DNA of 44,246 bases from Candidatus Melainabacteria bacterium (GCA_027371815.1 DAHXLC010000160.1:1-44246); one strand, 5' to 3'; counted from the stretch's first letter, positions 8,939-33,534 are shown. The notes: a model not told the origin generated them from the letters alone. A program made the numbers and translations.

Positions 8939-8943
8939 AATCT

Positions 8944-12026: not shown

Positions 12027-13673
12027 ATGCAATTTTATAACAAGGAAGGCATAGTTGTGGTTTTAAAAAAATCTATTTTTTTATTTTTAACAGTAATTTG
12101 GGCTGGTTTTTTCATGACCGCACCAGTAATAGCCAAATCTAATCTTAGTAATTACATGGATTATTTAAAGCCTGATTTAACGAAAAAAACCAATTTAAAT
12201 CAAGCTCAAGATCGACTAATCAAGAAGCAAAAAATTACTAAATCTAAACTTTCGGTAAATAGATATATTGACAATCGTGAAATTGGGATTTTTCTTAATA
12301 CCAACCTTGACGACTTGAAAAAAGTTTATCCCAACAATTCTGAATTTACCAAAACGGTTAAATATATTGCCGGTATTGTTTTAACAATTCCCTGGAATAA
12401 ACTAGAGCCAGAAGAAGCTAATTATGATTTTAGTCAAATTGATGAAGCCATTGACTGGTGTAAACTCCATCAAAAATTGTTAATTCTACAAATTCCCAGT
12501 TCGGGATATAGTTTAACCACTGATTCACAAATCAACTCTTATACACCAGAATGGTTTTACCGCAGTGACGCCAAATTTATTGAATACAAAAATGCCCATA
12601 ACCAGAGTTGTAAAATGCCAGTTCCTTGGGATGATACCTATCTGGCTAAATGGGTTAATTTTATTATGGCCGTCGGTAAAAAATATGATGGCAATCATTA
12701 TTTACACAGTATAAGTATCACGGGTGGTGGTTATGATACCAATACAGCTATTCTTCCCGATAACATTACGGAGCCAACTCGCCAAGAAATTTATACTAAA
12801 TTAAAAACCGATTTTAAATTAAATCAGAAAGTTGCTGTAGATAATTGGAAATATATTTGTGATTTATATGCTAAGGCATTTCCAGAATCATCACTCAATT
12901 TTGGCTTGAATCCACCAATTCCTAGACGTATTGGTGAAGATAGCCTTGATGAAATTAGTAATTATATAATTTTTCGCTATGGCAAAAAAATCTTTTTAAC
13001 CCGACAAAATGTAAATTCTAGTAAAAACACCTTTGATGATTACAGATTGCTTTTAAAATTTCATACTGATACCTATACAGCGCTTCAACTTTCAGATAGT
13101 ATTGATGCTGAGATGTTTCGTAAAATCACCAAATGGGCACTTACTGATGGGGTTAGTATTTTACAAATACCTTATCCTTTGCTTGAAAATCTCACTAATG
13201 ATACCAACTTAAATATGTTTAAAGATTTTCGCAGACGACTCGGTTTTCAGCTGGTTTTCCTTAAAGCCAATTTTCCAAAAGAAATTGATTTTGATGACGA
13301 TATTACTATGGACTTTACTTTTGATAATAATGGTGTAGCTCCAGCCATTAATTATACCAAAGAATTAGATAAACAAATACCGGCAAGCTATAAAATTGAA
13401 ATTACCTTTAAGAACAAAGATAATCAAATCAAAGCAATATCATATCATACACCAAAACCGCCTACCAATAGCTGGAAGTCAGCTGCGCCTATAACCTGGA
13501 GCGAAGATCTTAAAACTACTGGTATCGCTCGTGGATCTTATTCATTATTTTTAAGCCTGATGGATAAGGAAACGGATCAAAAATTAAACTTACTTGATTA
13601 TCATCAGGTTTTACCAAACGCTCAACCAGAAATAAAAAACTCCCTGTTTATTGGTAAAATTATCATTAAGTAA
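12027..13673 (+). CDS. secreted protein, possible clan GH-A TIM-barrel glycosidase-like (function uncertain)
   Basis: Likely true start is GTG 12057, 7 nt after GGAAGG (12044-12049). Signal peptide KKSIFLFLTVIWAGFFMTAPVIA/KS. The segment IPWNKLEPEEANYDFSQIDEAIDWCKLHQKLLILQI resembles GH42/GH5/DUF4832-type proteins. Confidence 0.4.
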   Translation: MQFYNKEGIVVVLKKSIFLFLTVIWAGFFMTAPVIAKSNLSNYMDYLKPDLTKKTNLNQAQDRLIKKQKITKSKLSVNRYIDNREIGIFLNTNLDDLKKVYPNNSEFTKTVKYIAGIVLTIPWNKLEPEEANYDFSQIDEAIDWCKLHQKLLILQIPSSGYSLTTDSQINSYTPEWFYRSDAKFIEYKNAHNQSCKMPVPWDDTYLAKWVNFIMAVGKKYDGNHYLHSISITGGGYDTNTAILPDNITEPTRQEIYTKLKTDFKLNQKVAVDNWKYICDLYAKAFPESSLNFGLNPPIPRRIGEDSLDEISNYIIFRYGKKIFLTRQNVNSSKNTFDDYRLLLKFHTDTYTALQLSDSIDAEMFRKITKWALTDGVSILQIPYPLLENLTNDTNLNMFKDFRRRLGFQLVFLKANFPKEIDFDDDITMDFTFDNNGVAPAINYTKELDKQIPASYKIEITFKNKDNQIKAISYHTPKPPTNSWKSAAPITWSEDLKTTGIARGSYSLFLSLMDKETDQKLNLLDYHQVLPNAQPEIKNSLFIGKIIIK

Positions 13674-13832
13674 AATTTCATGGTGTATAAGAAATACATA
13701 CAATCACCCATAATAATTTACCAGTAAAGTCAATTATGGAATAAATTTTAGATCCAAATATAACTGTCAATATAAATGGATATTATCGATTTGAATTGAT
13801 GATCACAAATAAGTTAATTTGATTATATGATA

Positions 13833-16412
13833 CTACAGTTTAACCAATTCATTTTGTTGAGCCCAAAGTACAAATTTGGTATCAAAACTTGAATTTAAAT
13901 TTTCATGATACGGTAAAACTCTTACGGTAAAACCATGCCGGCCACTTTGATCACATTTAAACGTGCCATTAAATAAAGTTGATTTATCTTTATTTTCCTT
14001 TCCCTGCATAGTTATTACTTTTCCGTCACTAATTTCACCAATTTCATTAAGTAGTCCATAATAAATCTGTACGACAATATCGCTAGGTTTTAAACTGCCA
14101 AGATTAATAGTTACATCAACTTCAATTTCATCACCAACACGGGTATTTGATTTAGCTTTAGTATTAGCTGCTAAAATTCTTATGTCTTTAAAATGTTCGT
14201 CAATAGACTTATTCCAAAGCGCTAGAGCCTTTACTTTCTGCAAATTGTCGTTAAGCATCACTTTACTTGACTTAATTGCTGGCAGGTACATATCCTTATA
14301 ATATTCTTTGAGCATACGGTTAACATTAAAAGTTGGGCATAATGTCAACATTGAAGCTTTCATCTTTGACAACCAGGTTCTGGGTCGATTATTTTTATCA
14401 CGATCATAAAATGCTGGCACAATTTCTTTTTCTAAAAGTTCATATAAAGCATTAGATTCTATTAAATCCTGATAATTGCTATCTGCATAAACTTCACCAC
14501 GACCAATCGCCCAACCTAAGGTTGCCTTATAAGCTTCATCCCACCAACCATCAAGAATACTAAAATTAAGACCACCATTAAAAGTTACTTTCATGCCACT
14601 GGTACCACAGGCTTCTAGAAATCTACGTGGTGTGTTAAGCCACATGTCAACACCTTGAACCAAATATCGCGAGACATTCATATCGTAATCTTCAATAAAA
14701 ACAATACGTTTACGTAAATCTTCATCATGAGTAAAATTAATAATCTGACGAATTAACTCCTTCGCAGGCACATCTTCAGGATGTGCCTTACCAGCAATTA
14801 AAATTTGCACTGGCTTATCTTTATTTAATAAAATTTGCGCTAAGCGTTTAGTATCTTTAAATAAAAGCGTGGCTCGTTTATAAGTAGCAACACGCCTGGC
14901 AAATCCAATCGTTAAAATCTGCGGATCAAGAATTTCATTAGCTTCGGATAATTCACTAGGCATAGCCCCTTTTTCTTCAAGCTGTTGCTTCAAACGATTT
15001 CGCGTAAAATAAACAAGTTTCTGACGCCTGGCCTCATGCACCCGCCAAAGCTCTTCATCAGGAATATCTGCAACTTTCTGCCAGATATTTTGGTCAAAGA
15101 TGTCTTCAGACCAGCGACTACCTAGATACATATCAAATAATTCAGCCATTTCATCAGATATCCAGGATCGAGTATGAATACCATTAGTAACATAAGTTAT
15201 TGGTATTTCATTTATAGGAGTTTTAGGCCAGTTGGCAGCAAATAATTTTGCCGATACTTCTTGATGCAATTTACTTACGGCATTAATTTTACCGGAAAGG
15301 TTAATCGCCAGATTAGCCATACTAAATGACTCGTTCATATCATTTGCATTTATGCGCCCTAAACTTAAAAATTCTTCTTTAGTTAAGTTTAGTTTAATAA
15401 AATATTCTTTTAAGTACTCATCAAGTAAATCAGGGCTGAATTTATCAATACCAGCTGGAACCGCAGTATGAGTTGTAAAAATATGTCCCATTCGCGCTAA
15501 TAGTTTAGCTTCGGTAAAAGTAATTTTATGTTTTTCCATTAACATGGCTATTCGTTCAATAGCCAAAAAGGCAGAGTGCCCTTCATTCATATGAAATACA
15601 CTTGGTTCAATGCCAAGATTCGCTAAGGCTTTCATGCCACCAATACCAAGCATTATTTCTTGCTTAATTCTTATATCAAGGTTGGCTTGATAGAGCGCAT
15701 TGGTAATTACTCTATCCTCGGGGATATTTTGCGATACATTAGTATCCAGTAAGTAAAGCATCACCCGACCAACTTGAGCTTTCCAGATCCGCGCATAAAC
15801 ATCACGCCCTTTCATTTTGACACTTATTACCAGTGGCTTGCCATCTTCTCGTTTTACTTCAATAATCGGTAAATTATAAAAATCATTATTAGGATATTTT
15901 TCCTGTTGCCAGCCATCAATAGTTAAATATTGTTTAAAATAACCTTCTTGATAGGCTAAACCAACAGCTACTAAAGGCAAACCCAACTCAGAGGCGGCTT
16001 TAACATGATCGCCGGATAAAATCCCTAAGCCACCCGAATAAATAGCTAAAGCTTCAGTTATGCCATATTCGGCCGAAAAATAAGCAATAGTATCATTACT
16101 TTGAGCCTTAAAATTCTGACTGAACCAAGTTTGTTTACCTTGCATGTATTCTTGATGTTTGGTGTAAAGCCGGTTTAACTGAGTTAAAAACCCTTCATCT
16201 AAAGCGGCTTGATTAAGTTTTTCCTGAGATAACTTACCTAATAAAGCAACCGGATTATGATTGCTCAACTGCCATAGATCTAAATCCAGCCTGGCAAATA
16301 ATTTAACGATTTCATGATTCCAAGTCCATCGTAAATTATAGGCTAGTTCGCGTAAACCTTCTAACGGAGTGGGTAAAAATGGGGTAACTTCAATTGTAGA
16401 TATGGGTTTCAA
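13833..16412 (-). CDS. glgP: alpha-glucan family phosphorylase (GT35, DUF3417-type N-terminus)
   Basis: TTG start at 16412, 7 nt after AGGAG (16420-16424 on the minus strand). N-terminal LAYNLRWTWNHE...LW...NHNPV, GGLGILSGDH, and the PLP-Lys region EACGTSGMKVTFNGGLNFSILDGWW. Confidence 0.9.
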   Translation of the reverse strand: MKPISTIEVTPFLPTPLEGLRELAYNLRWTWNHEIVKLFARLDLDLWQLSNHNPVALLGKLSQEKLNQAALDEGFLTQLNRLYTKHQEYMQGKQTWFSQNFKAQSNDTIAYFSAEYGITEALAIYSGGLGILSGDHVKAASELGLPLVAVGLAYQEGYFKQYLTIDGWQQEKYPNNDFYNLPIIEVKREDGKPLVISVKMKGRDVYARIWKAQVGRVMLYLLDTNVSQNIPEDRVITNALYQANLDIRIKQEIMLGIGGMKALANLGIEPSVFHMNEGHSAFLAIERIAMLMEKHKITFTEAKLLARMGHIFTTHTAVPAGIDKFSPDLLDEYLKEYFIKLNLTKEEFLSLGRINANDMNESFSMANLAINLSGKINAVSKLHQEVSAKLFAANWPKTPINEIPITYVTNGIHTRSWISDEMAELFDMYLGSRWSEDIFDQNIWQKVADIPDEELWRVHEARRQKLVYFTRNRLKQQLEEKGAMPSELSEANEILDPQILTIGFARRVATYKRATLLFKDTKRLAQILLNKDKPVQILIAGKAHPEDVPAKELIRQIINFTHDEDLRKRIVFIEDYDMNVSRYLVQGVDMWLNTPRRFLEACGTSGMKVTFNGGLNFSILDGWWDEAYKATLGWAIGRGEVYADSNYQDLIESNALYELLEKEIVPAFYDRDKNNRPRTWLSKMKASMLTLCPTFNVNRMLKEYYKDMYLPAIKSSKVMLNDNLQKVKALALWNKSIDEHFKDIRILAANTKAKSNTRVGDEIEVDVTINLGSLKPSDIVVQIYYGLLNEIGEISDGKVITMQGKENKDKSTLFNGTFKCDQSGRHGFTVRVLPYHENLNSSFDTKFVLWAQQNELVKL

Positions 16413-20617: not shown

Positions 20618-21382
20618 TTAAAATTTAACAATGGGGCTTTGCGCTTGGCCTAAATAGTTAACCCCAGTTAAAGTAAGATCAGTTACGGCTAAATTTATCC
20701 CTGAACAAAAACCTGCCAGAACCTGAATAAAACCACCAGTACCAATAATATAGACATCCTTGTTTACATGAGTTTTTACGGTATTAATCCAACAGTCTAC
20801 CGTACCGATATGACTTAAGAAGCAACCATTAGCAATTGCCTTATCAGTATCAAAAGCCAGCGGCGATGCAATTTTCAAGCCATCAAGATCGACTTCCGGT
20901 AACTGATCGAGGTAATTAGATATTGCTTTAAAGGTTTTGGAAATTCCCAGAGTAATTAATCCGCCTAGAAATTTTCCTGAATTTTCAACTACTGTTAATG
21001 TCGTAGCCGAACCAAAATCAATGATACCAATAACTTCTTTATCACTATATAATTTAATCGCAGCAGTTGCGTTGGCTATTCGGTCAATGCCTATACCATC
21101 GTAAATATTGGTAATAATGTTCTGTTCATTAGACTTTAATTCAATAATTTTAACGTTCAAATTACTCAGAGCATCAATTAATTTTTTGGCCAAATCAGGA
21201 ATTACTGAAGATACAATAACTCGAACCTGCTTAATTAATTTAATTTTATTCACTAAAAAGACAATAGCTAGTTCTAATTGCTGAATCCGAAAATCATTTC
21301 TTTCAATAAGTTTGTGTTCATGAAATAAGCCAACTGATAGCCTAGAATTGCCAATATCAATGCATAAGAATTTATTTATCAT
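20618..21382 (-). CDS. coaX: type III pantothenate kinase
   Basis: LCIDIGNSR, GIDR and IIDFGSATT, at ~254 aa. The start overlaps the upstream amidase stop by 11 nt. Confidence 0.88.
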   Translation of the reverse strand: MINKFLCIDIGNSRLSVGLFHEHKLIERNDFRIQQLELAIVFLVNKIKLIKQVRVIVSSVIPDLAKKLIDALSNLNVKIIELKSNEQNIITNIYDGIGIDRIANATAAIKLYSDKEVIGIIDFGSATTLTVVENSGKFLGGLITLGISKTFKAISNYLDQLPEVDLDGLKIASPLAFDTDKAIANGCFLSHIGTVDCWINTVKTHVNKDVYIIGTGGFIQVLAGFCSGINLAVTDLTLTGVNYLGQAQSPIVKF

Positions 21383-23189
21383 CCGTATTTCCCTTTATGT
21401 AATCATAAATCCCCTGATAAAGACCAATGGCAATTTTATCCTGGAATCCTGGGTTAATAAGTTTGGTTAAATCATCAGGATTGATAACAAAACCCACTTC
21501 AACTAAAACTGCCAGCATATTTGAGGTTCGATTTAAGGCCAGGCTTTGATATCTAGTTCCGTAGTCAGGTAAATTAATTGTTTTTACTAAACTATGCTTA
21601 AGCGATCGAGCTAAGTTTAATGACTGAATTTGATACCAGTAGGTTGATGTTCCGTGTTCGGTTAAAGGATTACGCCCGTCAGGTAGCGAGTTATTATGAA
21701 TGGAAATCAACATATCACTACTATGGTCTAAGGCATAATTTACCCTATCATATAAATCCACATAAGTCTTGTTGTCAGTTCTTGTTGAATAAACTGTTGC
21801 TCCATGCTGTTTTAACAGCGAAATTACCTTTTGGGCAATATCCAGGTTGAGCCTACTTTCTTTAATTCCGGATAAACCAATTGCCCCATTTTCACTACCA
21901 CCATGCCCAGGATCAATACATATTTTAAGACCTTGCAAGTCATTAATTATATGTGGTGGCTTTTTGCAAAACACATAAAGACAATTCTGACTGTATTGCG
22001 CAAAATAACCCCACTGCTGATGGCCTTTAAGGCTAAGGGTAAGTTTTAAGGTGCTATCATCCGTTTGGTTAAAGGTAACAAAATTAATTAACCTTAAACA
22101 TTTGTTTTGAGGAGTGGTTATCCATTCAATATTAGCTTTAGCCCCATAGATGTTTACGACCAATTCATTAGGATTTAGTTTTTGCGTGATTTCATAGGGT
22201 AGATTATTTTCTAGCGGAATTTTGATAAATTCAAAATTCTGATTAGAATCAGTGTTAATAGTTCTAGGTATAGCTGTATTGACAAAATATTTATTATTTA
22301 AAGAAAAATCCAGATCAGTTTTATTGATCCAAACATGTTTTTGTTCAGTATATTTAATACGATAATTATCGCCATTATAACCATCAACAATAACTTGAAT
22401 ATTTTTGGATAAAGGCGTGGTTCTTGAACCCGTTTCACTCGTACGAACTACGGTATTATCAGATTTGGTAGTGGCATTTAAATCATTCGCTAGAACTGTG
22501 ATAGTATTAGAGCTTATAAAGTGCTTATCATCATTATTAAGTATGATATTAAAATTATCCTGATTAAAATTGTCATCACCCGTAATTTTATAGTCAAGAA
22601 TATATTCACTAAGTTGACTGTTATTAGCTAATCTTGATTGTCCATATTGAGTGTCAAATTTAATACGATTTATTTTGGGGAATAAATTTAAGCTTTGATT
22701 TTTGATTTTAAGAGTCAAATTACTGTTAGTTTTAGCTTTAACGGCAAAGTGAATTGTATCACCGCATTTAACGCCAAGATTATTCTTAGGCTGAATGGAG
22801 TTTGTATCCAGTACTAAATTGGTAGTATCATCTAGGGGTCGGTTAATTAATAAATTCACACTCTCATTGGCACTTTTAAGCTCAAATAAATTATTGCCTT
22901 TTTTTAAATCAACAACAGTAGCAAAAAAACCTAAATTATTATAAGATACGGGCTGATTGTTTAAAAATAAAGGTTTGTGGCTATAACAAGTACCTAAAAT
23001 AAAACTAGTTGGACTGTTGATTAGGGAATTATTAATCGGATAAACAATAAGGAATGATTTAGTTTGCGCAAACTGAGCCAAGGCAAGCTCAAGAGGCAAG
23101 CCTAAAATTATCATTAGTATCAGTAAAAAATTTTTGTTTTTTTTTAAAACAGGCATATTTATTGATTTAACCTTGATTACTTGTATCAT
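21372..23189 (-). CDS. N-acetylmuramoyl-L-alanine amidase (amidase_3) with ~400-aa N-terminal non-catalytic region
   Basis: C-terminal ICIDPGHGGSENGAIG, LISIHNNS and AVLVEVGF. The more likely start is ATG 23156 (MPVLKKNKNFLLILMIILGLPLELALA, signal-like). The N-terminal region is N/T-rich and beta-like, with no recognised motif. Confidence 0.8.
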   Translation of the reverse strand: MIQVIKVKSINMPVLKKNKNFLLILMIILGLPLELALAQFAQTKSFLIVYPINNSLINSPTSFILGTCYSHKPLFLNNQPVSYNNLGFFATVVDLKKGNNLFELKSANESVNLLINRPLDDTTNLVLDTNSIQPKNNLGVKCGDTIHFAVKAKTNSNLTLKIKNQSLNLFPKINRIKFDTQYGQSRLANNSQLSEYILDYKITGDDNFNQDNFNIILNNDDKHFISSNTITVLANDLNATTKSDNTVVRTSETGSRTTPLSKNIQVIVDGYNGDNYRIKYTEQKHVWINKTDLDFSLNNKYFVNTAIPRTINTDSNQNFEFIKIPLENNLPYEITQKLNPNELVVNIYGAKANIEWITTPQNKCLRLINFVTFNQTDDSTLKLTLSLKGHQQWGYFAQYSQNCLYVFCKKPPHIINDLQGLKICIDPGHGGSENGAIGLSGIKESRLNLDIAQKVISLLKQHGATVYSTRTDNKTYVDLYDRVNYALDHSSDMLISIHNNSLPDGRNPLTEHGTSTYWYQIQSLNLARSLKHSLVKTINLPDYGTRYQSLALNRTSNMLAVLVEVGFVINPDDLTKLINPGFQDKIAIGLYQGIYDYIKGNTDDK

Positions 23190-23997
23190 TAATTAACCAG
23201 TTGTATTGAGGAAAAAAATATTTTTCGATGGTAATATTATACAATTCTTCTTTATGGGGATAAGTATAATATTCAATCACAAAATTAAACGGATCACCAA
23301 AAAGACTGTCAAAAATTAATTTATTAATTTGAAAAAATTGGGAAATCATTAAACACTTATTTTGCGGCTTAAAAATTACATTGGCTTTATTGTTAATAAA
23401 TAATTCAATACTACTTTCACAGTCATCGTAAAGCGTATGAGGATAAATTGGATGATTTAACAATTTTGGCCAGCCAACACTACCATTACAAGTAAGAAAT
23501 AAAGGTTTGATATTTTTTTGACTTTGCATTGGCAAAAGAAGTTTGAAATTATATATATCCTGGATTGAGCAGATTTGTCCGTTAACAATAAATTTTTTAC
23601 TAGCATAGGCATTTTTAAGCTCATGAAGCGATTTTAGAGGATATTGATCACAAATAGTTTTTAAAACTAAAGTATTATACGCATTAATCCAGAAGGCAAA
23701 ATATTGTTCAGGGGTAGTGATTAAAGTTGGTGACTTAAGTTCATTAAGGGTATTTTCCCACTGTCTATCAGCTTTTAACTTTTGATAGTCCACATAGCCA
23801 TTGTGAACATATTTTGTTAATAACAACTCATAAGTCTTAAAATTATTCAATACTGGTTTTTGCTGATTTATAAATAAACACTGAAAGTTTAAAAACAAAT
23901 TAGTCAAATTAGCAAAAATACAGATAAGAAGAACAATGATCAAGATAATCATTGTCAAAGGATTTTGCGGTGCTGATTTTGTAACGGACATCAACAA
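23167..23997 (-). CDS. DUF547-domain protein with N-terminal TM anchor
   Basis: FAFWINAYNTLVLKTICDQYP matches the DUF547 core. The ATG at 23991 is likelier than TTG 23997. TM segment LTMIILIIVLLICIFANL. Confidence 0.7.
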   Translation of the reverse strand: MLMSVTKSAPQNPLTMIILIIVLLICIFANLTNLFLNFQCLFINQQKPVLNNFKTYELLLTKYVHNGYVDYQKLKADRQWENTLNELKSPTLITTPEQYFAFWINAYNTLVLKTICDQYPLKSLHELKNAYASKKFIVNGQICSIQDIYNFKLLLPMQSQKNIKPLFLTCNGSVGWPKLLNHPIYPHTLYDDCESSIELFINNKANVIFKPQNKCLMISQFFQINKLIFDSLFGDPFNFVIEYYTYPHKEELYNITIEKYFFPQYNWLINDTSNQG

Positions 23998-24010
23998 TTT
24001 AAGAACTAAA

Positions 24011-24083
24011 TGGAGCGTACGAGATTCGAACTCGTGACCTCTTCAATGCCATTGAAGCGCGCTACCAACTGCGCTAACGCCCC
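24011..24083 (-). tRNA. tRNA-Ala (anticodon GGC), CCA not encoded
   Basis: The reverse complement GGGGCGTTAGCGCAGTTGGTAGCGCGCTTCAATGGCATTGAAGAGGTCACGAGTTCGAATCTCGTACGCTCCA folds as a cloverleaf. It has a 7-bp acceptor stem with the G3:U70 Ala identity pair, D-stem GCGC/GCGC, anticodon stem CTTCA/TGAAG with loop AT-GGC-AT, T-arm ACGAG-TTCGAAT-CTCGT, and discriminator A. It is followed by TTT, not CCA. Confidence 0.93.
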
Positions 24084-24100
24084 TTAAAGTCACAATTTAC

Positions 24101-24106
24101 ATTATA
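24101..24106 (-). promoter_or_regulatory. candidate -10 box (TATAAT) for tRNA-Ala and the downstream operon
   Basis: Perfect TATAAT on the minus strand, 17 nt upstream of the mature tRNA 5' end. No convincing -35 was found. Confidence 0.25.
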
Positions 24107-24192
24107 ATATATTGTTGACCTTAAATAAACTGCTTTAAAATAGATATTTCTAAAAATAATTATTAAATTTAATTAACCTTTCTTTAATCTAT

Positions 24193-25179
24193 TTATTTTG
24201 GCGCCAGCATTTTTTGTTTTAGCTTTTCTTTAAACCAAAGGGTTTTACTGCGTGCATTTAACCAAAAATACTTATCTGGTGGCCACAAGAACGATGTTTC
24301 AAAGTAGCACCAAATTGTGCATCCCTGACAAAAAGACCAGGAACCTTCTTTTTTGCGTTTTTCCTGAACCGCAAAACTATGCCATAATTCATCTAAATTA
24401 GATATTCCATTTACATGTTGAATTTTAAGTTTTTCATCGAACATGTGATAACACGGCAATAAAAGGTAATCATCGGGAGATATAACAATATTTGAAGAAA
24501 TGGCACGGCATCTAGGATTATTAATCTGATTACCGCCATTTTTAAAAAATTCTAAAAAAGCTTCATTTAAACAGACATTTTCATATTTCATCAGTCTTTC
24601 CAACTCTTGGAGGTTTTCCTGATTTAATAATTCATTGTCACAGTAGTCAAATACCGGCCCCAATAAAACAATGACGCCTAAATCGTAGGCCAGTTTAATA
24701 AGTTTTTCCATTCCGGGTAGCGAATTTGGTGTAGCAGTGGCAATAATCGATGGGCTTTGCCCTAGTGATTTAGCCAGTTTTACACTTTCAATAACTTTGC
24801 TATAGCCATCTATTCCCCGTTCAACTTTATATTCATCAGGATCAGTGGTCGATAAAGAAAATTTAAGATCGTCAACTAACCCTTTAAGTTGATGTGCTTT
24901 GTAAGGATACAACGTGCCAGTATTGGCCAAGCTAGTATAAAAGCCCAGGTCTTTAGCAGCTTTAAGTACTTGCGGCAAATTCTTATAAACTAAAGGCTCC
25001 CCACCCGTAAAATCAATTACCTTAACGCCCAGACGCTTTAAAGCCTGGAGATTTTCAATAATAATTTGCGGGTTAACTTCTTTAACTTTAACATTATTAG
25101 GATTTACGGGAATATCACAGTACACACAGCGCGAATTACATTTGTAAGTAAGATAATAGTTGGCTAAAACTGGTGGCAT
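24193..25179 (-). CDS. radical SAM enzyme with Cys-rich C-terminal auxiliary domain (SPASM/twitch- or DUF3463-like), substrate unknown
   Basis: CX3CX2C at residues 14-21 (YKCNSRCVYCD) and the GGE motif FTGGEPL. C-terminal cysteine patterns are C-x19-C (CRAISSNIVISPDDYLLLPC) and C-x2-C-x3-C (FCQGCTIWCYFE). Confidence 0.85.
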   Translation of the reverse strand: MPPVLANYYLTYKCNSRCVYCDIPVNPNNVKVKEVNPQIIIENLQALKRLGVKVIDFTGGEPLVYKNLPQVLKAAKDLGFYTSLANTGTLYPYKAHQLKGLVDDLKFSLSTTDPDEYKVERGIDGYSKVIESVKLAKSLGQSPSIIATATPNSLPGMEKLIKLAYDLGVIVLLGPVFDYCDNELLNQENLQELERLMKYENVCLNEAFLEFFKNGGNQINNPRCRAISSNIVISPDDYLLLPCYHMFDEKLKIQHVNGISNLDELWHSFAVQEKRKKEGSWSFCQGCTIWCYFETSFLWPPDKYFWLNARSKTLWFKEKLKQKMLAPK

Positions 25180-25254
25180 GAATTTTATCCTATTAAATTA
25201 AGTAAGTTTTATATTGACTAATTACCTTTAACTAAAAAATAGCTATCGGTAATT

Positions 25255-25677
25255 TTAACTATCAGACTGGTTAAGTTGGGCGATAATACTCGGATATATT
25301 TGAAAAGCTGGCTTAATTGCTGGCAATAAAGCCAATGCTTTATTAATTGGACCTTTAGATACAATTTTACCACTAAGTAAGGCCATTGGCACATTGATTT
25401 TACCCAGCCAAAACTCGTTGGCAACTTCAGCTTTCATAAATAACTCAATTAAAGGTTTAATCTCGTTATCACCAAGCAAAATATTAAAATCACTACCGTT
25501 AGCACAATCAATAGTTAATTGCGCTTCAGGGCTACGATAATGAAAAGTAACAATCAGCTTTGATTCTAAAAGCGGATTAGCTATATGGGGTGTCTGACTA
25601 ATCTGCGTCCAAAGATTTAACATTACTAGATTTAATTCGTCACTGTTTTTAAATGTTGACATTAAATTTAACCTCAA
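25255..25677 (-). CDS. SCP2 (sterol-carrier-protein-2 fold) lipid-binding domain protein
   Basis: Likely start is ATG 25662 (MSTFKNSDEL), 9 nt after GAGG (25672-25675). The C-terminal LSGKIVSKGPINKALALLPAIKPAF is SCP2-like. It lies 15 nt downstream of the Fe-ADH stop. Confidence 0.7.
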   Translation of the reverse strand: MRLNLMSTFKNSDELNLVMLNLWTQISQTPHIANPLLESKLIVTFHYRSPEAQLTIDCANGSDFNILLGDNEIKPLIELFMKAEVANEFWLGKINVPMALLSGKIVSKGPINKALALLPAIKPAFQIYPSIIAQLNQSDS

Positions 25678-26832
25678 TTAATTATAGGAATTAATTATTA
25701 ATTCTTTTAAATCTTCCAGACTAGCCTCAACGGGATTAAACATTAAACTAGGGTCAACCAAAGCGGTTTGCGCTAATTCTTCAATATCTTCGTTGGTTAA
25801 TTGAGGCAATCCAAGTGATTTTAGATTTAAGGGCAGTTCTAACGTAGCTAATAATTCACTAATTTTAACGCATAAAAATTCCTGATTAGCATTGCGATTA
25901 TTAAATACTTTATAACTTAAATCGTCATAATACGATTGGCTATTTCGGCTGTTAAATTTGATACCAGGTAATAAGAATACCGCATTAGTGGCTCCATGAT
26001 GTGTATTATACTTAGCGCCAATAGCGTGAGCCAAGGCATGGACAACACCGACTCCACTATTGCTAAAGGCCAAACCAGCCATAGTGGAAGCAATTAAGGT
26101 TTGTTCACGAGCGCTAAGATTCGTGGGTTCATTATAAGCTATTGGCAAGTACGTAAATAAATTGTTCAGCGCACCAATGCAAAGGCTATCGGTAATTGGC
26201 GAATTAGAATTAATTGAAGTATAGGCTTCAATAGCATGCGTTATAGCATCCATACCGGTAGCTGCTGTTAAAAATTTAGGTAAAGTTACCAGTAAATTAG
26301 GATCTAAAATAGCATATTCGCTTGCCAAGCAATGACTGCCAAAAAATATTTTTTTATTGCTAGCATTGTCTTTAGCAACAGCGACTAAAGATACTTCCGA
26401 TCCAGTTCCGGCAGTTGTAGGAACAACCCAGAGGGGTTTAAGTTTTTGGGTAATGGAATTAATACCCTGATAATTTAAGATTTCTGTATCTTTAAGCGTT
26501 AAGCCAATATTAACCAATTTAGCTGTGTCAATAACCGATCCCCCACCTATAGCTAAAATAAGATCGCAAGCGTTGTCAATGGCGATTCGTGTGATGCTTT
26601 CAACTATGGTAACTTCCGCATCGCTGGTAATTGTATCAAATAAGGTAATTTTAGCTTCAATTTGATTTATGTTATGCAGAAAGACCTTGAAAAAATCTTG
26701 TTTGGCTATACCTAAATCTGTTAAGATTAAAATACTGGAAGTACTTAAATCACTAAGTTTATCGAGGATTAATTCACCAAAATCATAAGTGAAAACAATT
26801 TGAGTATCGGTCGTAAATACAAAAGGGTTCAT
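25678..26832 (-). CDS. iron-containing (group III) alcohol dehydrogenase
   Basis: AIGGGSVIDTAK and VPTTAGTGSE are present. Metal ligands are intact in GMDAITHAIEAY (D-x3-H) and VVHALAHAIGAKYNTHHGATNAV. Length is 384 aa. Confidence 0.88.
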   Translation of the reverse strand: MNPFVFTTDTQIVFTYDFGELILDKLSDLSTSSILILTDLGIAKQDFFKVFLHNINQIEAKITLFDTITSDAEVTIVESITRIAIDNACDLILAIGGGSVIDTAKLVNIGLTLKDTEILNYQGINSITQKLKPLWVVPTTAGTGSEVSLVAVAKDNASNKKIFFGSHCLASEYAILDPNLLVTLPKFLTAATGMDAITHAIEAYTSINSNSPITDSLCIGALNNLFTYLPIAYNEPTNLSAREQTLIASTMAGLAFSNSGVGVVHALAHAIGAKYNTHHGATNAVFLLPGIKFNSRNSQSYYDDLSYKVFNNRNANQEFLCVKISELLATLELPLNLKSLGLPQLTNEDIEELAQTALVDPSLMFNPVEASLEDLKELIINSYN

Positions 26833-27200
26833 TATATTTATTTTACTGTGAATTTAATTAGGTTTTATTATAATGTGAACAGGAGTTAATTGTTTTATTT
26901 AAAATCCGCATGATTGAATTAATCAAGCTATAAAGTAAGTTAAATAAATATAATTTAAATTAGTGAATTACAATTCGAGAGATTCTAACATTATAAATTT
27001 TAAACTAATAGTTAGGTTTATCAATGAAATTTATTAATTATAATATGGGTAAATTTTCATGTTAGTAATGTTGACATCTAAGTGATTTTATATGAATATT
27101 AACTAAGTAAAGACCTTAACTGGATCTTGATTAATAATTTTTAATTTATAATGCTTGTGTGCAAAACAGTCCTTAATTTGATATTTTATAATTGCAGTAA

Positions 27201-29168
27201 ATGATCAGTAAATCTTTATTTTCTCGAATAATCACTACCCTAAATATTTGCCTTATTACCGGCAATTTAATTTGGCCGCAATTAGCTATTTGTGGCACTG
27301 ATCCAAAACAGCCAGTGGGAACAATTCTACTGCCAATTACCCCTAAACTAGACGAAATAGTCCCAGCTACCGAAGATCAACAAGCATTAGAAAATACGGC
27401 TAAGCCAAATAATCTTAAAAATAATTCGGAAGAAACTGGTTTAATAACTGAGGTTAGCGCTGATAATGAATTGCCACTAGCCAAGGATAAAGATACAGCT
27501 GAATCTGATAAGCCTTTAAAAGCTAGTGTGCAAATCGTTGCTGATGATACTGAATTTGATGAGGCCAAAAATACTTTTTTGGGAACTGGTAATGCGGTTG
27601 CCATTATTGGCGATCAAGACTCAAAACTAGAAGCTGATATGATTTTGTATAATCAGGACACTCAAATTATGGATGCGCGTGGCAATGTCAAAATCATTCG
27701 CAAAGGTCAAATAACCACTGGCAGTGCTTTTAAATTTGATGTTTCTTCCGATGAATATTTAATAACTAAACCTGATACTGAATTACAAGGATCAGAAATC
27801 ATATCCCGCAATGCCTTTAGTAATGCTGATGGACTAGCCTTTAAAAATGGTACGATTGACATGCCCCAAGCTTTCTATTATTCAAAAAATACGATGAATG
27901 CGCCAACAGTATATTCACAGGATGTACCTAATCGCTTAATGCATCCCGAAGCTTATGTACCTAGACAGTCTAGTTTTGTGTTTAAGGCACGCAAAATGGT
28001 CTATGAGAAGTATAAAGATACTAATAATTTAACAATTTTTGGCGGCCGGCTACAATTCAAGCATTTCAGTGTTCCGGTAGGTAAAATTGTTACCACGATC
28101 AACGGATCGAAAGAACAAAGAATTGTTATGCCAATCGTGCCTTATTTGGGTAATAACTTGTACGTTGGGGGAACCAGTATCGGGGCTATATTTAATACCC
28201 CAATTGGTAAAACTGGGGTATTAAGTTATGCTCCTTTAATTCAATTAGGTGGGGCTAGCTTAGCTGCTACCGGAAATAGCAATTCAACTGCAATAGGGGT
28301 TGGCACTCAACTTGGTTATGTAAATAATAAAATTAATTTCCATTATGCCTATGGTACCGTTTCTAATTTATCGGTAGGTGATTTTAAGTATAAAATCTGG
28401 AAACGAGTCAGATTTCAGTCTGGCGTTAACCGATTTTTAACCAACGGAATGTTTGGGGCGCAACGGGCACATTTAATTGCTGAAGTTGTTGACAATCATA
28501 TGATTCGTAGCATTCCTTTGATTCCCTTTTTAGATTTTCGGACATCAGCTGGCTGGGCTCAAGATTATCCACAATTGGTTAATTTATCGCCCCAATTCGC
28601 TAAATTATTTGGCAGCCCAACTACAACGCAGACCACGTCAGCTTTTAGGCTACAGGAACAAATTAGAGCAGCTACGGCACCATTATTTCAATTAGGCGAT
28701 GACAAATATGGTATTTCGGGAATGATTATGGGTGGTTTAGTTGGTAGGGCCTATTCAACCGGTGATAAGCAAACAATTGCCACAGGCACGCCAATGCTTA
28801 ATATTTCCCTTAATCGGTTAAAATTACAAACTGGTTACACCACTGCACAAATTCACGGTTCTACACCTTTTGTGTTTGACGAATATTACATGGGCTCTTC
28901 TTCTACTTTTATATCAGGATCCGTTCGCGTTAATAAATTTTTAGATTTAGGTGGTTATTATGGCTATAATCTCCAACAAAAATTACCTTATGCTGAAACA
29001 GTAACAGCCGCAATTGGCCCACCTGATTTTAAAGTCATCTTATCGCATGATATGATATTTGGTTATTCACGGGTAGGTTTTGGTATTTTATATGGACAAC
29101 CCATACCATTTAATAAACTGGTAGTAAAAGGTAATCCAGATAGGGGTCAATTAGGTGGGATTCAATAA
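27201..29168 (+). CDS. outer-membrane OstA/LptD-like protein (LPS-assembly related)
   Basis: N-terminal hydrophobic signal-like segment. OstA_N-like beta-jellyroll (VQIVADDTEFDEAKNTFLGTGNAVAIIGDQDSKLEADMILYNQDTQIMDARGNVKIIRKGQ). The C-terminal ~400 aa are G/Y/F/T-rich, consistent with a beta-barrel. At 655 aa it is shorter than classical LptD. Confidence 0.5.
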   Translation: MISKSLFSRIITTLNICLITGNLIWPQLAICGTDPKQPVGTILLPITPKLDEIVPATEDQQALENTAKPNNLKNNSEETGLITEVSADNELPLAKDKDTAESDKPLKASVQIVADDTEFDEAKNTFLGTGNAVAIIGDQDSKLEADMILYNQDTQIMDARGNVKIIRKGQITTGSAFKFDVSSDEYLITKPDTELQGSEIISRNAFSNADGLAFKNGTIDMPQAFYYSKNTMNAPTVYSQDVPNRLMHPEAYVPRQSSFVFKARKMVYEKYKDTNNLTIFGGRLQFKHFSVPVGKIVTTINGSKEQRIVMPIVPYLGNNLYVGGTSIGAIFNTPIGKTGVLSYAPLIQLGGASLAATGNSNSTAIGVGTQLGYVNNKINFHYAYGTVSNLSVGDFKYKIWKRVRFQSGVNRFLTNGMFGAQRAHLIAEVVDNHMIRSIPLIPFLDFRTSAGWAQDYPQLVNLSPQFAKLFGSPTTTQTTSAFRLQEQIRAATAPLFQLGDDKYGISGMIMGGLVGRAYSTGDKQTIATGTPMLNISLNRLKLQTGYTTAQIHGSTPFVFDEYYMGSSSTFISGSVRVNKFLDLGGYYGYNLQQKLPYAETVTAAIGPPDFKVILSHDMIFGYSRVGFGILYGQPIPFNKLVVKGNPDRGQLGGIQ

Positions 29169-30181
29169 TGGATATTAATTCACAGGAAAATTCAATTATT
29201 AATACTAAATTAGATCAAATGTTGCAAAGTACACTGCCAGCTTTAGGCATTGATTTGGGCGGTACGAAAATCAGTTGTGGTTTAGTAAGTAACTATAAAT
29301 TGGCAAGTGAACCGAAACAATATAAAACACCTAAAGGTAGCGCTAATATCTTAGATCAACTATACAAAATTATTGAAGAATATAAAGCCAAAAATCTAAT
29401 TGCTGGCGTTGGTGTTGCTACGGCCGGAATCGTTGATACTACTTCAGGAACGGTTATTGATTCAACGTTTAATTTACCAGGCTGGGCAGGAACAAATATT
29501 AAGCAATATCTCGAACCCAAAACAATGTTGCCGATTCATGTTGAAAATGATGCTAATGCAGCAGCCTATGGAGAGTTTAAATCCAAGTTTCAAAATCACA
29601 ATTTAAGCACTATTGTGGTAACCTTAGGAACTGGCATTGGTGGTGGCATTATCCTTAACGGACAGATATTTCATGGCGAAAATTATGCTGCTGGTGAAAT
29701 AGGTCATTTGAAAATTTCTTTTGAAAATAAAAGATTGTGTACCTGTGGTCATTTTGACTGCTGGGAAGCTTATGGATCAGGGCCTGGCTTACTTAAAACC
29801 ACTAAAGAACTTTTAAGTGAAGTAAATAGCAGTCAGTCTGTACTTTATGAAAACATTAATGATTTATCAACTTCGCACATTATTCAGGCTATTGAAAACA
29901 ATGATTTTTTAGCGAAAAAAGCCTTTGATTTATGGCATCATCATATAAGCATTGGTTTGGTAACAATTGCTCAAATTCTTAATCCTAAAACATTTATAAT
30001 TTCTGGTGGCATGAGTCCATTTGTTAATTATACTTTGCTCCAAGAAATGGTTATTGACAAGGCCTTAGCCAAAGTTGCCCAAAACCTGGAGATACATCAA
30101 TCAAGACTAGGTATCCATGCTGGAATCATTGGTGCAGGGCAAATAGCGCTAGATGCAATAATTTTACCCAAAAATTATTAA
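29168..30181 (+). CDS. ROK-family glucokinase
   Basis: LGIDLGGTKI, ENDANAAAYGE, LGTGIGGGIILNG, GEIGH, and the zinc motif CTCGHFDCWEAYGSG. The start overlaps the previous stop (TAATG). Confidence 0.85.
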   Translation: MDINSQENSIINTKLDQMLQSTLPALGIDLGGTKISCGLVSNYKLASEPKQYKTPKGSANILDQLYKIIEEYKAKNLIAGVGVATAGIVDTTSGTVIDSTFNLPGWAGTNIKQYLEPKTMLPIHVENDANAAAYGEFKSKFQNHNLSTIVVTLGTGIGGGIILNGQIFHGENYAAGEIGHLKISFENKRLCTCGHFDCWEAYGSGPGLLKTTKELLSEVNSSQSVLYENINDLSTSHIIQAIENNDFLAKKAFDLWHHHISIGLVTIAQILNPKTFIISGGMSPFVNYTLLQEMVIDKALAKVAQNLEIHQSRLGIHAGIIGAGQIALDAIILPKNY

Positions 30182-30184
30182 TCG

Positions 30185-31234
30185 TCAATTTTCTTCTTTA
30201 TTAAGAATACTTCTAGCCGCTTCAATTATTAGCTGTGGATTAAGTTCAGTTAGACATTCTCGATTAACACAGGTTTTATGGTAATTACAGGGTCTACAGG
30301 GTAAATCGCTGCGAAAAATAGCTTTGCTTAAACTAGTATCATTACTTAACGGGCCCCAACGTATTGGGTTGGTTGGCCCAAATAAGATTAAAGTCGGTAT
30401 ATTAGCTGCTCTAGTCAGGTGCGCTGGTCCGGAATCAGTGCAAATAGCTAAATTAAGATGTTTGTACAATGCCATACTTTGCCTTAGATTTAACTTGCCC
30501 GCTAAATTTATACATTTAAAAGGAAGTTTTAATTCTAAATCTTGATAAAGTGGCCGATCAATTGCCTGACCAGTAAAAAGTGGTATTATGTCATAATTTT
30601 TAGCTAACGCTAAAATTACTTTACTGAATAATTCTAAAGGATATAATTTATCCTCATGGGCTGCAGCTGCATGAATGAGAACTTTAATGGATGTATTATT
30701 TTTAAGAATTGGAACCATTTCGATTATTTCCGCTTCTTCACTGGGTGCAAGCCAATACTCAAGATCTGTATCATAATTTTTATTATGGTCAAGTTTTAAA
30801 ATTTCTAAGGTTGATAATATTTCATTTTGATTATCTTGTTGTGGTACGGCTTTAGTATAAAATAAATTATCCAAAAATGATGTTTTATAACCATAACGTT
30901 TTCGGGCTCCCGATAAAAAACTTAAAAGTTTGGCACCAAGAGATCGTTTTAAACAAAATACCATGTCATATTTTTTTTGTTTAATAATGTTCAAATAATA
31001 AAAAAAACTTTTGGTCTTTTCGTTTGAAGAGTCATATTTATGAAATCTAGTAGTATCAAAAATTATCAATTCGTTAATATAGGGACAATTTTCCAGTACT
31101 TGCCCACTTTGTGGCCCAACCAGAATATCGATGGAACTGTCCGGATACAATTCTTTTAGATTGCGGATAAAAGGAACGGTAAGAATAGTATCTCCGATAA
31201 AACGATACCTTATAACTAGTATTTTTTGTTTCAT
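30185..31234 (-). CDS. glycosyltransferase family 9 (LPS heptosyltransferase-like)
   Basis: ILVIRYRFIGDTILTVPFIRNLKELYP and CTDSGPAHLTRAANIPTLILFGPTNP. It is the last gene of the waaA-lpxK operon. Confidence 0.85.
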   Translation of the reverse strand: MKQKILVIRYRFIGDTILTVPFIRNLKELYPDSSIDILVGPQSGQVLENCPYINELIIFDTTRFHKYDSSNEKTKSFFYYLNIIKQKKYDMVFCLKRSLGAKLLSFLSGARKRYGYKTSFLDNLFYTKAVPQQDNQNEILSTLEILKLDHNKNYDTDLEYWLAPSEEAEIIEMVPILKNNTSIKVLIHAAAAHEDKLYPLELFSKVILALAKNYDIIPLFTGQAIDRPLYQDLELKLPFKCINLAGKLNLRQSMALYKHLNLAICTDSGPAHLTRAANIPTLILFGPTNPIRWGPLSNDTSLSKAIFRSDLPCRPCNYHKTCVNRECLTELNPQLIIEAARSILNKEEN

Positions 31235-31243
31235 GGTTTTAAT

Positions 31244-32254
31244 TTATTCAAAAAATTCAAGACCAATTTCAATTGCATATAACTTATTGTATAAAGGAAA
31301 TGATTTGGGTATTTTAAGATAATCCTTAGTGGTGGTAACTAATACTTCAGCTTGATAAGTATTAAATTCTTTAATCAGTAAGTCTAAATCATTTTGATTA
31401 TACCAGTGGTGATCGCTAAATTTCATTTGGTGAATAAGCTTAATATTTAAAGACTTTAAGGTATTGATAAAATTAGGCTCATTAGCGATGCCACTAAAAG
31501 CTAACGTTTTCTGATTTAGTTTAAAACTGTTAACTTCGAGTAAATTATTTTGATAGGAGAAATTTTTAACAATGAGCCTGGTTTTGCTTATTATTGCGCT
31601 TGAATTATATTGTTTAAGAAAATTAATTAATTGAGTTAAGGTTTCTTCCTGATAGTCAATTGGTATTTTAGTGATAATTATTTGCGTGGCTCGCTTAATG
31701 TTTTTAAATGATTCACGAAGCCTGCCTTGGGGGAAAAGTTTTTCTTGAGTAAAATCTGAATTGTAGTCAATTAATAAAATATTTTCATTGCGGTTCAGCC
31801 TTAAATGCTGATACCCATCATCAAGAATTAATACATCGGTTTGATATTGATCAATAGCTAATTGACCAGCTTTACAGCGATCGGCACTTACAATAACTAC
31901 GGCTTGTGGAACGTTTTTAGCAATTAAATATGGTTCATCACCATAAATTTTAGCGGCTAAAATTGAATCTTTATTAGTTTCCACAATATCTAAGGCATTT
32001 TTACCTTGTCGTTTATAGCCTCGACTTAAAATGCCCACGCGTTTATTTTGGCTTAAATATAATTTAGCCAAATAAATAGTATATGGTGTTTTACCAGTGC
32101 CACCTAAAGTTAAATTACCAACACTAACAACTTGGCAAGGTAAAGTTATACTTTCCATGATTTTATACTTATACAATTGAATTCGGCAATTGGTAATTAA
32201 TTCATAAATTTTACCAATTGGCCATAATAAATATTGACTAAAGTTAGTTTTCAT
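31244..32254 (-). CDS. lpxK: tetraacyldisaccharide 4'-kinase
   Basis: P-loop VGNLTLGGTGKTP, plus ILSRGY, YGDEPYL and ILDDGYQH. ATGA overlap with the waaA stop. Confidence 0.88.
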   Translation of the reverse strand: MKTNFSQYLLWPIGKIYELITNCRIQLYKYKIMESITLPCQVVSVGNLTLGGTGKTPYTIYLAKLYLSQNKRVGILSRGYKRQGKNALDIVETNKDSILAAKIYGDEPYLIAKNVPQAVVIVSADRCKAGQLAIDQYQTDVLILDDGYQHLRLNRNENILLIDYNSDFTQEKLFPQGRLRESFKNIKRATQIIITKIPIDYQEETLTQLINFLKQYNSSAIISKTRLIVKNFSYQNNLLEVNSFKLNQKTLAFSGIANEPNFINTLKSLNIKLIHQMKFSDHHWYNQNDLDLLIKEFNTYQAEVLVTTTKDYLKIPKSFPLYNKLYAIEIGLEFFE

Positions 32255-33534
32255 TTAAGACAACCTTCTTTATGAAAAATAATTTCATCGATTAAGGCAA
32301 AGGTCTTATCATTGGCGCCAATTGCTAAAGTCAAGATTTTTTGACCACTTTGCCCCATATTTGCAAGCTTTTGTGGATTAAGAATTAATTCTTGAACCGT
32401 CTCGTAAAGTTCTTGTTTATTATTTACAATTCTAATAGCTTTTAAGGTTAGTAATTCATGAGCAATTAATTTGGTTTTAAAAATATACTTGCCACAGACG
32501 ACTGGAACTCCAAAATTATAGGGTTCCAGTAAATTATGCCCTCCCACTTTAACTAAAGTACCCCCAACAAAAGCTAGCTGCGCCAAAGCATAAAGCTTAG
32601 TTAATATGCCCATTTGATCAATCAAGATAATATTGGTATTTTCACTTATTTTCTCAATATTGCTAAATCTAACATATTGACAGTTGTGGCTTATTAGCAA
32701 TGATTCCACCTGATTAAACCTTTCATCGTGACGGGGTACAATGATTAATTTTAAATTTTGACGCAGGGATGGCAGTTGCGTGACTAATTGATTAAATACT
32801 TCAATGATTGTACTTTCCTCACCTGCGTGCGTGGATCCGGCAATCAAGACAAAATCATTTTGCTTAATTAATAATTTTTGTTTTAAGGAAATTATATCAG
32901 TTTCATTTACTTGATTAATACCATCATATTTTAAATTTCCGGTAATGGCAATTGGTAAATTACTTCCACCAACTAATTCGTATCGCTGTTTTTCTTCGGC
33001 AGACTGAAGGCAGAGTAAATTAAATTTTTGTAAAACTGGTTTAAAAAAATAACGAAGTCGATAGTAGTTTTTAAATGAATTTGGTGACATACGACCATTG
33101 ACTAATATTAATTTAATGTTAAGCTTTTGAGCTTCATGAATAAAGCCTGGCCATATTTCGGTTTCAGCAATAATTACGGCAATAGGTTGAAAAGTTTTTA
33201 AAAATTTATTAATCGCCAATGGTAAATCAAATGGGAAATAAACAATTGTAGCCATTTTACTAAATTGTTCGCAAGCTATAGCATTAGCCGTTTTAGTTGT
33301 TGTCGAAATAATTAACGGTTGATTAGGATAACTGGTTTTAAACCGCTGAATTAACTTGGCTACAGAATTCAATTCACCAACTGAAACAGCATGAAACCAT
33401 ATTGATGCAGTTGTTTGCGGATAATTAAAGAATCCGAATTTGGCTAATATACCTGATCTGGTTTTGGGAATAAATATTAATAAAAAAGCGGCAAAGCCTA
33501 AAATTATCCAAACTAAAGTATAATACCAAAACAT
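32251..33534 (-). CDS. waaA: 3-deoxy-D-manno-octulosonic acid (Kdo) transferase
   Basis: N-terminal TM, WFHAVSVGE, and AETEIWPGFI. Length is ~427 aa. Confidence 0.9.
   Translation of the reverse strand: MFWYYTLVWIILGFAAFLLIFIPKTRSGILAKFGFFNYPQTTASIWFHAVSVGELNSVAKLIQRFKTSYPNQPLIISTTTKTANAIACEQFSKMATIVYFPFDLPLAINKFLKTFQPIAVIIAETEIWPGFIHEAQKLNIKLILVNGRMSPNSFKNYYRLRYFFKPVLQKFNLLCLQSAEEKQRYELVGGSNLPIAITGNLKYDGINQVNETDIISLKQKLLIKQNDFVLIAGSTHAGEESTIIEVFNQLVTQLPSLRQNLKLIIVPRHDERFNQVESLLISHNCQYVRFSNIEKISENTNIILIDQMGILTKLYALAQLAFVGGTLVKVGGHNLLEPYNFGVPVVCGKYIFKTKLIAHELLTLKAIRIVNNKQELYETVQELILNPQKLANMGQSGQKILTLAIGANDKTFALIDEIIFHKEGCLK

Follow-up and report, generated by a model that had tools for sequence, protein, structure and literature searches.

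An iron alcohol dehydrogenase-SCP2 pair and a stand-alone radical SAM gene, probably juxtaposed secondarily in one clade of Obscuribacterales

We analysed a 44,246-nt stretch of DNA from Candidatus Melainabacteria bacterium (GCA_027371815.1 DAHXLC010000160.1:1-44246), referred to at its full length as the window, in which positions 24193-26832 carry on the minus strand the genes of an iron-containing alcohol dehydrogenase (Fe-ADH, or ADH), an SCP2-fold protein and a radical SAM (rSAM) enzyme. Judged by homologues, the host belongs to the Obscuribacterales, non-photosynthetic relatives of cyanobacteria. A preliminary description of this DNA had proposed that the three genes form a conserved module whose products act jointly on a hydrophobic alcohol or aldehyde. 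Its account of the layout was confirmed: the three open reading frames (ORFs) are intact and co-directional with all motifs in place, the SCP2 start codon (ATG, at 25662) lies 15 nt beyond the ADH stop and is preceded by GAGG, and 75 nt separate SCP2 from the rSAM gene. It missed a tRNA-Ala(GGC) gene that follows the rSAM gene. Three co-directional genes are not in themselves unusual, and comparison with related genomes leads us to read the locus, with a probability of about 0.6, as a lineage-specific juxtaposition of two independently conserved units, the ADH-SCP2 pair and the rSAM gene with its tRNA, and not as a dedicated three-enzyme pathway.

We compared 77 genome loci carrying relatives of the window rSAM, among them 57 from Obscuribacterales, 53 of which include upstream sequence. 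The ADH-SCP2 pair lies beside the rSAM gene in two of these 53 (L001 and L002, with rSAMs 96% and 86% identical to that of the window) and is absent within 8 kb in the other 51; a sensitive hidden Markov model of the SCP2 family did not uncover an overlooked SCP2 gene in any of the other 75 rSAM loci. The usual upstream neighbour of the rSAM gene is a divergent isochorismatase-like gene (38/53), mostly with an adjoining TolC-like gene. From the SCP2 side, where 54 loci had room upstream and 57 had room downstream, a window-type rSAM gene was found at none of the 57. In the metagenome-assembled genomes (MAGs) JADJWK01 and DATNPN01, rSAM and ADH-SCP2 lie on different contigs. The preliminary description had itself named a lack of linkage in related genomes as grounds for abandoning a conserved rSAM-SCP2-FeADH module, and this is what the neighbourhood survey returned, both linked loci belonging to the clade of the window.

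ADH and SCP2, on the other hand, are a conserved pair. In 38 of 54 loci SCP2 is immediately preceded by the ADH gene, usually with a one-base overlap, and a PfkB kinase gene lies downstream of SCP2 in 30 of 57. In other Obscuribacterales, ADH orthologues 44-48% identical to that of the window occupy the same syntenic position, with a divergent 655-aa-type protein and a ROK kinase flanking the pair, and the pairing is kept down to identities of 33-36% for ADH and 41-43% for SCP2.

For the rSAM gene, the steadiest neighbour in Obscuribacterales is tRNA-Ala(GGC), which in 51 of 57 loci lies directly 3' of it in the same orientation, including loci whose protein-coding neighbours are all different. 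The linkage could arise from a common promoter, from a function that connects the two, or because the tRNA gene serves as a synteny anchor. Downstream, a DUF547 gene is found within 5 kb in 31 of the 57 loci, an amidase gene in 36 and the type III pantothenate kinase gene coaX in 28. Two assemblies contain two rSAM copies each, 66-73% identical to the window protein (L027 and L048 in CAWICA01, L053 and L073 in JARLHI01); the second copies (L048 and L053) share a different gene context that lacks tRNA-Ala, and are either paralogues or products of mixed bins. An rSAM homologue of 39% identity in an Ectothiorhodospiraceae MAG (L064) has a tRNA-Ala(GGC) gene 2.3 kb away (5654-5727, minus strand), which may be chance, or a relic of a transfer together with that tRNA gene or beside it.

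The whole region of ~14 kb is collinear in the window, L001 and L002, the only genomes with the trio, and the trio is therefore the product of a single evolutionary event. The spacer between SCP2 and rSAM measures 83 nt in L001 and 9 nt in L002. The window has retained the left flank of the ADH-SCP2 block (a 655-aa protein and a ROK kinase, 45% and 50% identical to the L081 copies) and the right flank of the rSAM block (tRNA-Ala, DUF547, amidase and CoaX), and lacks the PfkB, TusA, AIRS, isochorismatase-like and TolC-like genes of the two ancestral loci. Because the flanks are kept and the intervening genes are missing, the 75-nt gap marks the junction of two ancestral blocks. A repeat search at the junction gave short chance-level matches only and no mobile-element scars. 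The window clade has a GC content of 33-35%, whereas the other loci have a median of 50%, as would suit a streamlined lineage. Scans for promoters and terminators here performed no better than on shuffled sequence in this AT-rich DNA, so that an internal promoter in the 75-nt gap is neither supported nor opposed, and an Rfam scan of 23900-27400 returned the tRNA only and no riboswitches.

Table 1. Features at the locus in the window, and loci of the Myxococcota rSAM-SCP2 cassette in other genomes.
Feature	Coordinates	Strand	Assignment and context
Iron-containing (group III) alcohol dehydrogenase, 384 aa	25678..26832	-	Pfam and motifs; first gene of the ADH-SCP2 pair
SCP2-fold small protein, 135 aa	25255..25662	-	AlphaFold/Foldseek and PF02036; partner of the ADH
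Spacer, 75 nt	25180..25254	-	Junction of two ancestral blocks; elsewhere a PfkB gene follows SCP2 here
Radical SAM enzyme, 328 aa, PTO1314-like with a twitch/SPASM-like C-terminal domain (by model)	24193..25179	-	PF04055
tRNA-Ala(GGC)	24011..24083	-	Rfam tRNA 67.2 bits and ARAGORN; directly 3' of the rSAM gene
DUF547 protein	23167..23997	-	Pfam DUF547; opens the conserved downstream block
N-acetylmuramoyl-L-alanine amidase	21372-23189		NCBIfam; downstream block
Type III pantothenate kinase (CoaX)	20618-21382		Downstream block
655-aa secreted/outer-membrane-like protein, then ROK kinase	27201..30181	+	Divergent from the ADH gene; ROK by Pfam
Myxococcota cassette	L167 7414-11545; L168; L148 202-4463; L163 1254-5810		TetR, rSAM and SCP2::E1alpha::E1beta fusion

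The sole assignment obtained for the 655-aa protein is a weak LptC-like match. Genes for the lipopolysaccharide (LPS) core, encoding a GT9 heptosyltransferase, LpxK and the Kdo transferase WaaA, adjoin the ROK gene of the window (30185-33534, minus strand), and in other Obscuribacterales LpxC and DUF4139 genes occur near the ADH-SCP2 block (L082), which places the ADH-SCP2 unit in an outer-membrane/LPS neighbourhood.

All three domain assignments of the preliminary description proved correct, and every motif that it listed is present, although two spacings need correction: the H-x4-H of the ADH is H-x3-H, and the C-x19-C of the rSAM is C-x18-C. The ADH scores 117.8 bits for Fe-ADH (PF00465) and 163.3 bits for ADH_Fe_C (PF25137), which makes it an iron alcohol dehydrogenase, and carries GGGS at residue 96, D195-x3-H199, H265-x3-H269 and HH at 278-279. 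Its best NCBIfam match is ErcA, with 275 bits against a cutoff of 550, and all equivalog cutoffs are missed. The nearest solved relatives are NAD-dependent methanol dehydrogenase, Zymomonas ADH2 and 1,3-propanediol oxidoreductase (DhaT).

The SCP2 assignment draws on the family and on the fold. The window protein, whose start methionine is common to all 26 homologues, matches PF02036 with 14.7 bits (E 0.038), below the gathering threshold of 21.3 bits. All 27 family members match PF02036 at E <= 0.1, with a best value of 1.6e-6, the AlphaFold model has a pLDDT of 92.9, and the top 47 Foldseek matches of the model in the PDB all have the SCP2 fold (best E 3e-7, probability 0.99-1.00, target-normalised TM <= 0.76); together these make the assignment sound.

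Across genomes, members of this SCP2 subfamily adjoin, or are fused to, Fe-ADH, aldehyde:ferredoxin oxidoreductase, thiamine pyrophosphate (TPP)-dependent E1 and class III aminotransferase. On a metagenome contig of 67% GC (L158, 3800-7329), an Fe-ADH (33% identical to that of the window) and an SCP2 protein (41%) are followed by a tungsten-type aldehyde:ferredoxin oxidoreductase, an order that looks like an alcohol-aldehyde-acid series built around the subfamily. More distant members (39-46% identity) form the N-terminal domain of fusions of ~860 aa with the alpha and beta subunits of a TPP-dependent E1. In L153 (4899-9962) and L165 (3842-8560), such an SCP2::E1alpha::E1beta fusion has as its flanking neighbours a class III aminotransferase (GSA-aminomutase/omega-transaminase-like) and a 253-263-aa protein with a C-terminus like a second SCP2, and MFS or TRAP-type transporter genes are found upstream. 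Because all of these partners make or use aldehyde-level intermediates, the SCP2 protein may hold a hydrophobic aldehyde or alcohol for its enzyme. The joint action on such a substrate that the preliminary description had envisaged is plausible for the ADH-SCP2 pair; the rSAM is not part of the conserved unit.

The rSAM enzyme belongs to the radical SAM superfamily, with C14-x3-C18-x2-C21 (CNSRCVYC, residues 14-21), FTGGEPL and 69.9 bits for PF04055 against a threshold of 29.5. Its C-terminal part contains C224-x18-C243 and C284-x2-C287-x3-C291; C224, C284 and C287 are invariant, while 49 of 50 family sequences have C243 and 39 have C291. PF13186 (SPASM) was not detected in the window protein. 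Its top NCBIfam match is TIGR03961 (the PTO1314 family), with 89.2 bits over residues 3-298 against a cutoff of 306, too low for membership. PTO1314 is also the top match for 46 of the 50 family members (best E 6.6e-47), and neither the window protein nor any of the 50 reached a curated NCBIfam cutoff, which bears out the earlier placement of the enzyme outside characterised families. HpnH (TIGR03470) was rejected at 33.7 bits against an equivalog cutoff of 225, as were MoaA, PqqE, NirJ/AhbD, mycofactocin maturase, Tes, viperin and BlsE at 31-66 bits against cutoffs of 180-650.

Against solved structures, sequence similarity extends over residues 3-169 at most. The AlphaFold model (pLDDT 96.9) gave as its best match BlsE (7vob; TM 0.70, full length, 324 aligned columns), followed by SuiB, SkfB and MoaA, and by this predicted fold the protein is probably a twitch/SPASM-type enzyme. 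The four C-terminal cysteines probably bind one auxiliary cluster, besides the one SAM cluster. Clustering at 50% identity gives this small family 76 clusters below E 1e-30; its members are 66-77% identical to the window protein across Obscuribacterales outside the window's own clade. Most Obscuribacterales orthologues (compared: P0019, P0012 and P0065) have a variable low-complexity C-terminal extension of 40-140 aa past a conserved Trp/Lys-rich helix, and the rSAMs of the low-GC window clade (328-332 aa) are without it.

Distant relatives of the rSAM recur beside glycan and lipid genes. In eight loci (L065-L072; seven from Ignavibacteria and one, L068, labelled Bacteroidetes), a NodB-type deacetylase and a 363-aa membrane glycosyltransferase of family 2 (GT2) precede an rSAM homologue of 34-38% identity, and a putative outer-membrane protein and an M50 protease follow it; the alignments of this GT2 to HpnI (66 bits) and PgaC (82 bits) run end to end. 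One distant relative overlaps a GT4 gene by 4 nt, and another precedes GT2 and DgkA genes. A 206-kb contig (JGI Ga0568869_0000015; L170/L174, the latter 1-15005) carries a cluster of eight rSAM genes, including one B12-binding, three window-type (43-47% identity) and three Myxococcota-type (30-34%), together with a NodB deacetylase, a GT4, a GT28 resembling monogalactosyldiacylglycerol (MGDG) synthase, DUF3943 and a large ketosynthase gene. Ladderane-type clusters of fatty-acid and rSAM genes in anammox bacteria and Desulfotalea have been discussed (PMC2649909), and the present cluster resembles them in composition. Because glycosyltransferases, NodB, DgkA, an MGDG-synthase-like gene and a ketosynthase adjoin these relatives, we infer that the window rSAM may act on a sugar-bearing lipid or glycan precursor.

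Taken together, our preferred reading of the locus is as follows. The first unit would consist of an NAD(P)-dependent iron alcohol/aldehyde oxidoreductase and an SCP2 partner that binds the hydrophobic alcohol or aldehyde and passes the substrate on. The second would be a stand-alone rSAM followed by tRNA-Ala(GGC), with its own promoter region, as a divergent upstream neighbour is the norm elsewhere; our best guess is that the enzyme abstracts hydrogen from a sugar-bearing envelope lipid or glycan precursor, and we count in favour that its best fold match, BlsE, is a sugar-nucleoside decarboxylase. In the low-GC window clade, loss or rearrangement of intervening genes would then have set the second unit directly behind the first, and a single transcript now probably covers all three genes and the tRNA.

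Several observations weigh against this reading. The adjacency has outlasted a divergence of the ADH to 65% identity, and the SCP2-rSAM spacer is down to 9 nt in L002; spacer and persistence together suggest that the three genes are probably expressed together in the window clade. Genes that are unlinked in most genomes can still serve one pathway. The Obscuribacterales rSAM has no adjacent glycosyltransferase, and the glycolipid assignment draws on relatives of 34-47% identity. Moreover, a second, independent rSAM-SCP2 adjacency exists in Myxococcota (Table 1), where a TetR gene, a ~350-aa SPASM-type rSAM and an 840-860-aa SCP2::E1alpha::E1beta fusion form a cassette that appears uncharacterised. 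A 4-nt overlap joins the rSAM and fusion genes. Across Polyangiaceae, Myxococcales and Sandaracinaceae the rSAM shows 63-87% identity, and the SCP2 domain is 39-46% identical to the window SCP2. In pairwise comparison the Myxococcota rSAM is only 26% identical to that of the window, over the N-terminal half only; its top NCBIfam match is likewise PTO1314 (94-100 bits), and hhalign joins the two families over 290 columns including the four C-terminal cysteines (E 9e-35). Window-type and Myxococcota-type rSAMs also occur together in the lipid-like cluster of L170/L174.

Accordingly, a single pathway deserves weighing as a tentative alternative, though we consider it unlikely: SCP2 would present a hydrophobic, membrane-derived alcohol or aldehyde, the ADH would set its oxidation state and the rSAM would carry out a radical step, with the partnership existing unlinked in other genomes. 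The co-directional arrangement and tight spacing (15 nt, 75 nt, and the 9 nt of L002) speak for such a pathway, as does the independent Myxococcota pairing of a PTO1314-like rSAM with an SCP2 protein of the same subfamily. Both units are present in both MAGs in which this could be checked (JADJWK01 and DATNPN01), the lipid-type clusters to which rSAM relatives belong include genes for a ketosynthase, DgkA and AccD and an MGDG-synthase-like gene, and in the model a C-terminal Trp/Lys-rich helix of the rSAM (303-325) could lie at the membrane surface. However, 51 of the 53 related rSAM loci show no linkage of the units, none of the 57 SCP2 loci has a window-type rSAM, and a single event within a narrow clade accounts for the trio. 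SCP2 has ADH and PfkB as conserved partners and the rSAM has a tRNA gene, and rSAM relatives in four other lineages have neither SCP2 nor Fe-ADH nearby. The Myxococcota rSAM, at 26% identity, could also be a different enzyme.

A broader version of this idea, which we regard as quite unlikely, is that a partnership between PTO1314-like twitch rSAMs and this SCP2 subfamily arose at least twice, with SCP2 as a dedicated carrier of a hydrophobic aldehyde-level lipid intermediate between aldehyde-handling enzymes (Fe-ADH, aldehyde:ferredoxin oxidoreductase, TPP-dependent E1 and omega-transaminase) and the rSAM. If true, this would represent undescribed lipid-tailoring chemistry in non-photosynthetic cyanobacterial relatives and myxobacteria.

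That the rSAM acts on RNA, such as tRNA-Ala(GGC) or another tRNA, is very improbable. Such a substrate would explain why the two genes have stayed linked in 51 of 57 loci while the protein-coding neighbours changed, and the tRNA-Ala(GGC) near the Ectothiorhodospiraceae homologue agrees with it. Yet tRNA genes often anchor synteny, and the present one may simply be expressed from the promoter of the rSAM gene. The homologues in Ignavibacteria, Cyclobacteriaceae, L170, L172 and L173 have no tRNA beside them, the second rSAM copies in L048 and L053 lack it too, and the enzyme has no above-noise similarity to known tRNA-modifying rSAMs, with TYW1 at rank 45 in the fold search. The least probable reading, a SPASM/twitch-type maturase of a ribosomally synthesised and post-translationally modified peptide (RiPP) with an overlooked precursor gene, can be rejected: although SuiB, SkfB, CteB-type enzymes and anSME are among the structural neighbours and NCBIfam sactipeptide and ranthipeptide maturase models match weakly, no conserved small ORF or gene resembling a RiPP recognition element (RRE) lies beside the rSAM in 57 loci, as the preliminary description had reported for the minus strand here, the rSAM core begins at residue 3 with no N-terminal RRE extension, the 66-77% identity across the order and the fixed synteny look like housekeeping, and the neighbours in other phyla are glycosyltransferases and not peptides, proteases or transporters.

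A conserved module would have defined a new three-enzyme route of lipid tailoring. The evidence favours a secondary juxtaposition, and that claim should be dropped; the window proteins are new members of known superfamilies. Three points of departure are left, none of which yet answers a long-standing question. The first is an uncharacterised rSAM family that recurs in other phyla beside glycosyltransferases, deacetylases and lipid genes, a target for work on envelope glycolipid chemistry. The second is an SCP2 subfamily tied to Fe-ADH, aldehyde:ferredoxin oxidoreductase, TPP-dependent E1 and aminotransferase, which points to a carrier for hydrophobic reactive aldehydes. The third is the TetR-rSAM-SCP2::E1 cassette of Myxococcota, a better place than the window to ask whether SCP2 proteins serve rSAM enzymes.

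Among known systems, the closest sequence family to the rSAM is the uncharacterised TIGR03961/PTO1314 family, to which, with scores far below the cutoff, the window rSAM family is a sister and not a member; a literature search found no paper mentioning PTO1314 or TIGR03961. In fold, the enzyme shares with BlsE (cytosylglucuronate decarboxylase), MoaA, SkfB, SuiB and anSME a partial TIM barrel and a C-terminal beta-hairpin/helix domain with conserved cysteines. It is only 14-19% identical to BlsE and other twitch/SPASM enzymes, scores 31 bits against a BlsE NCBIfam cutoff of 400, and has in C-x18-C ... C-x2-C-x3-C a shorter pattern than the full seven-Cys SPASM motif. With HpnH it has in common a similar length, a Cys-rich C-terminal part and a weak end-to-end alignment (rSAM 11-296 with HpnH 35-314 of 318).

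Hopanoid head groups are tailored in the order glycosylation, deacetylation, radical rearrangement. The Ignavibacteria gene order of NodB-type deacetylase, HpnI/PgaC-like GT2 and rSAM homologue echoes this HpnI-HpnK-HpnJ system. The two differ in that HpnK is a YdjC-type and not a NodB-type deacetylase, and in that HpnJ is a B12-binding rSAM, whereas the window rSAM has no B12 domain and no hopanoid genes were seen nearby.

The SCP2 protein shares its fold with UbiJ/UbiT and with the SCP2 domains of MFE-2, SCPx and alkylsulfatases, and also the logic of a small lipid-binding module fused to an enzyme or encoded beside it, while being only 10-21% identical to solved SCP2 proteins. UbiJ comes only at rank 17 among the fold matches. 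Neither a U32 peptidase gene nor UbiU/UbiV or another Ubi gene was found around the window locus or in the SCP2 loci examined, so that the genomic association typical of UbiJ/UbiT is lacking. Our literature searches found no description of a stand-alone SCP2 protein paired with an iron ADH or of SCP2 with radical SAM gene clusters, and neither SCP2 nor ADH appears as a partner in a 2026 review of lipid-modifying rSAMs.

Finally, the ADH resembles the group III iron ADHs FucO, Zymomonas ADH2, DhaT, methanol dehydrogenase and ErcA over its full length, at 30-40% identity and with GGGS and the Asp/His ligands kept. It differs from the characterised short-chain enzymes of this group in falling below all equivalog cutoffs and in having a conserved SCP2 partner, which suggests that its substrate is more hydrophobic than theirs.

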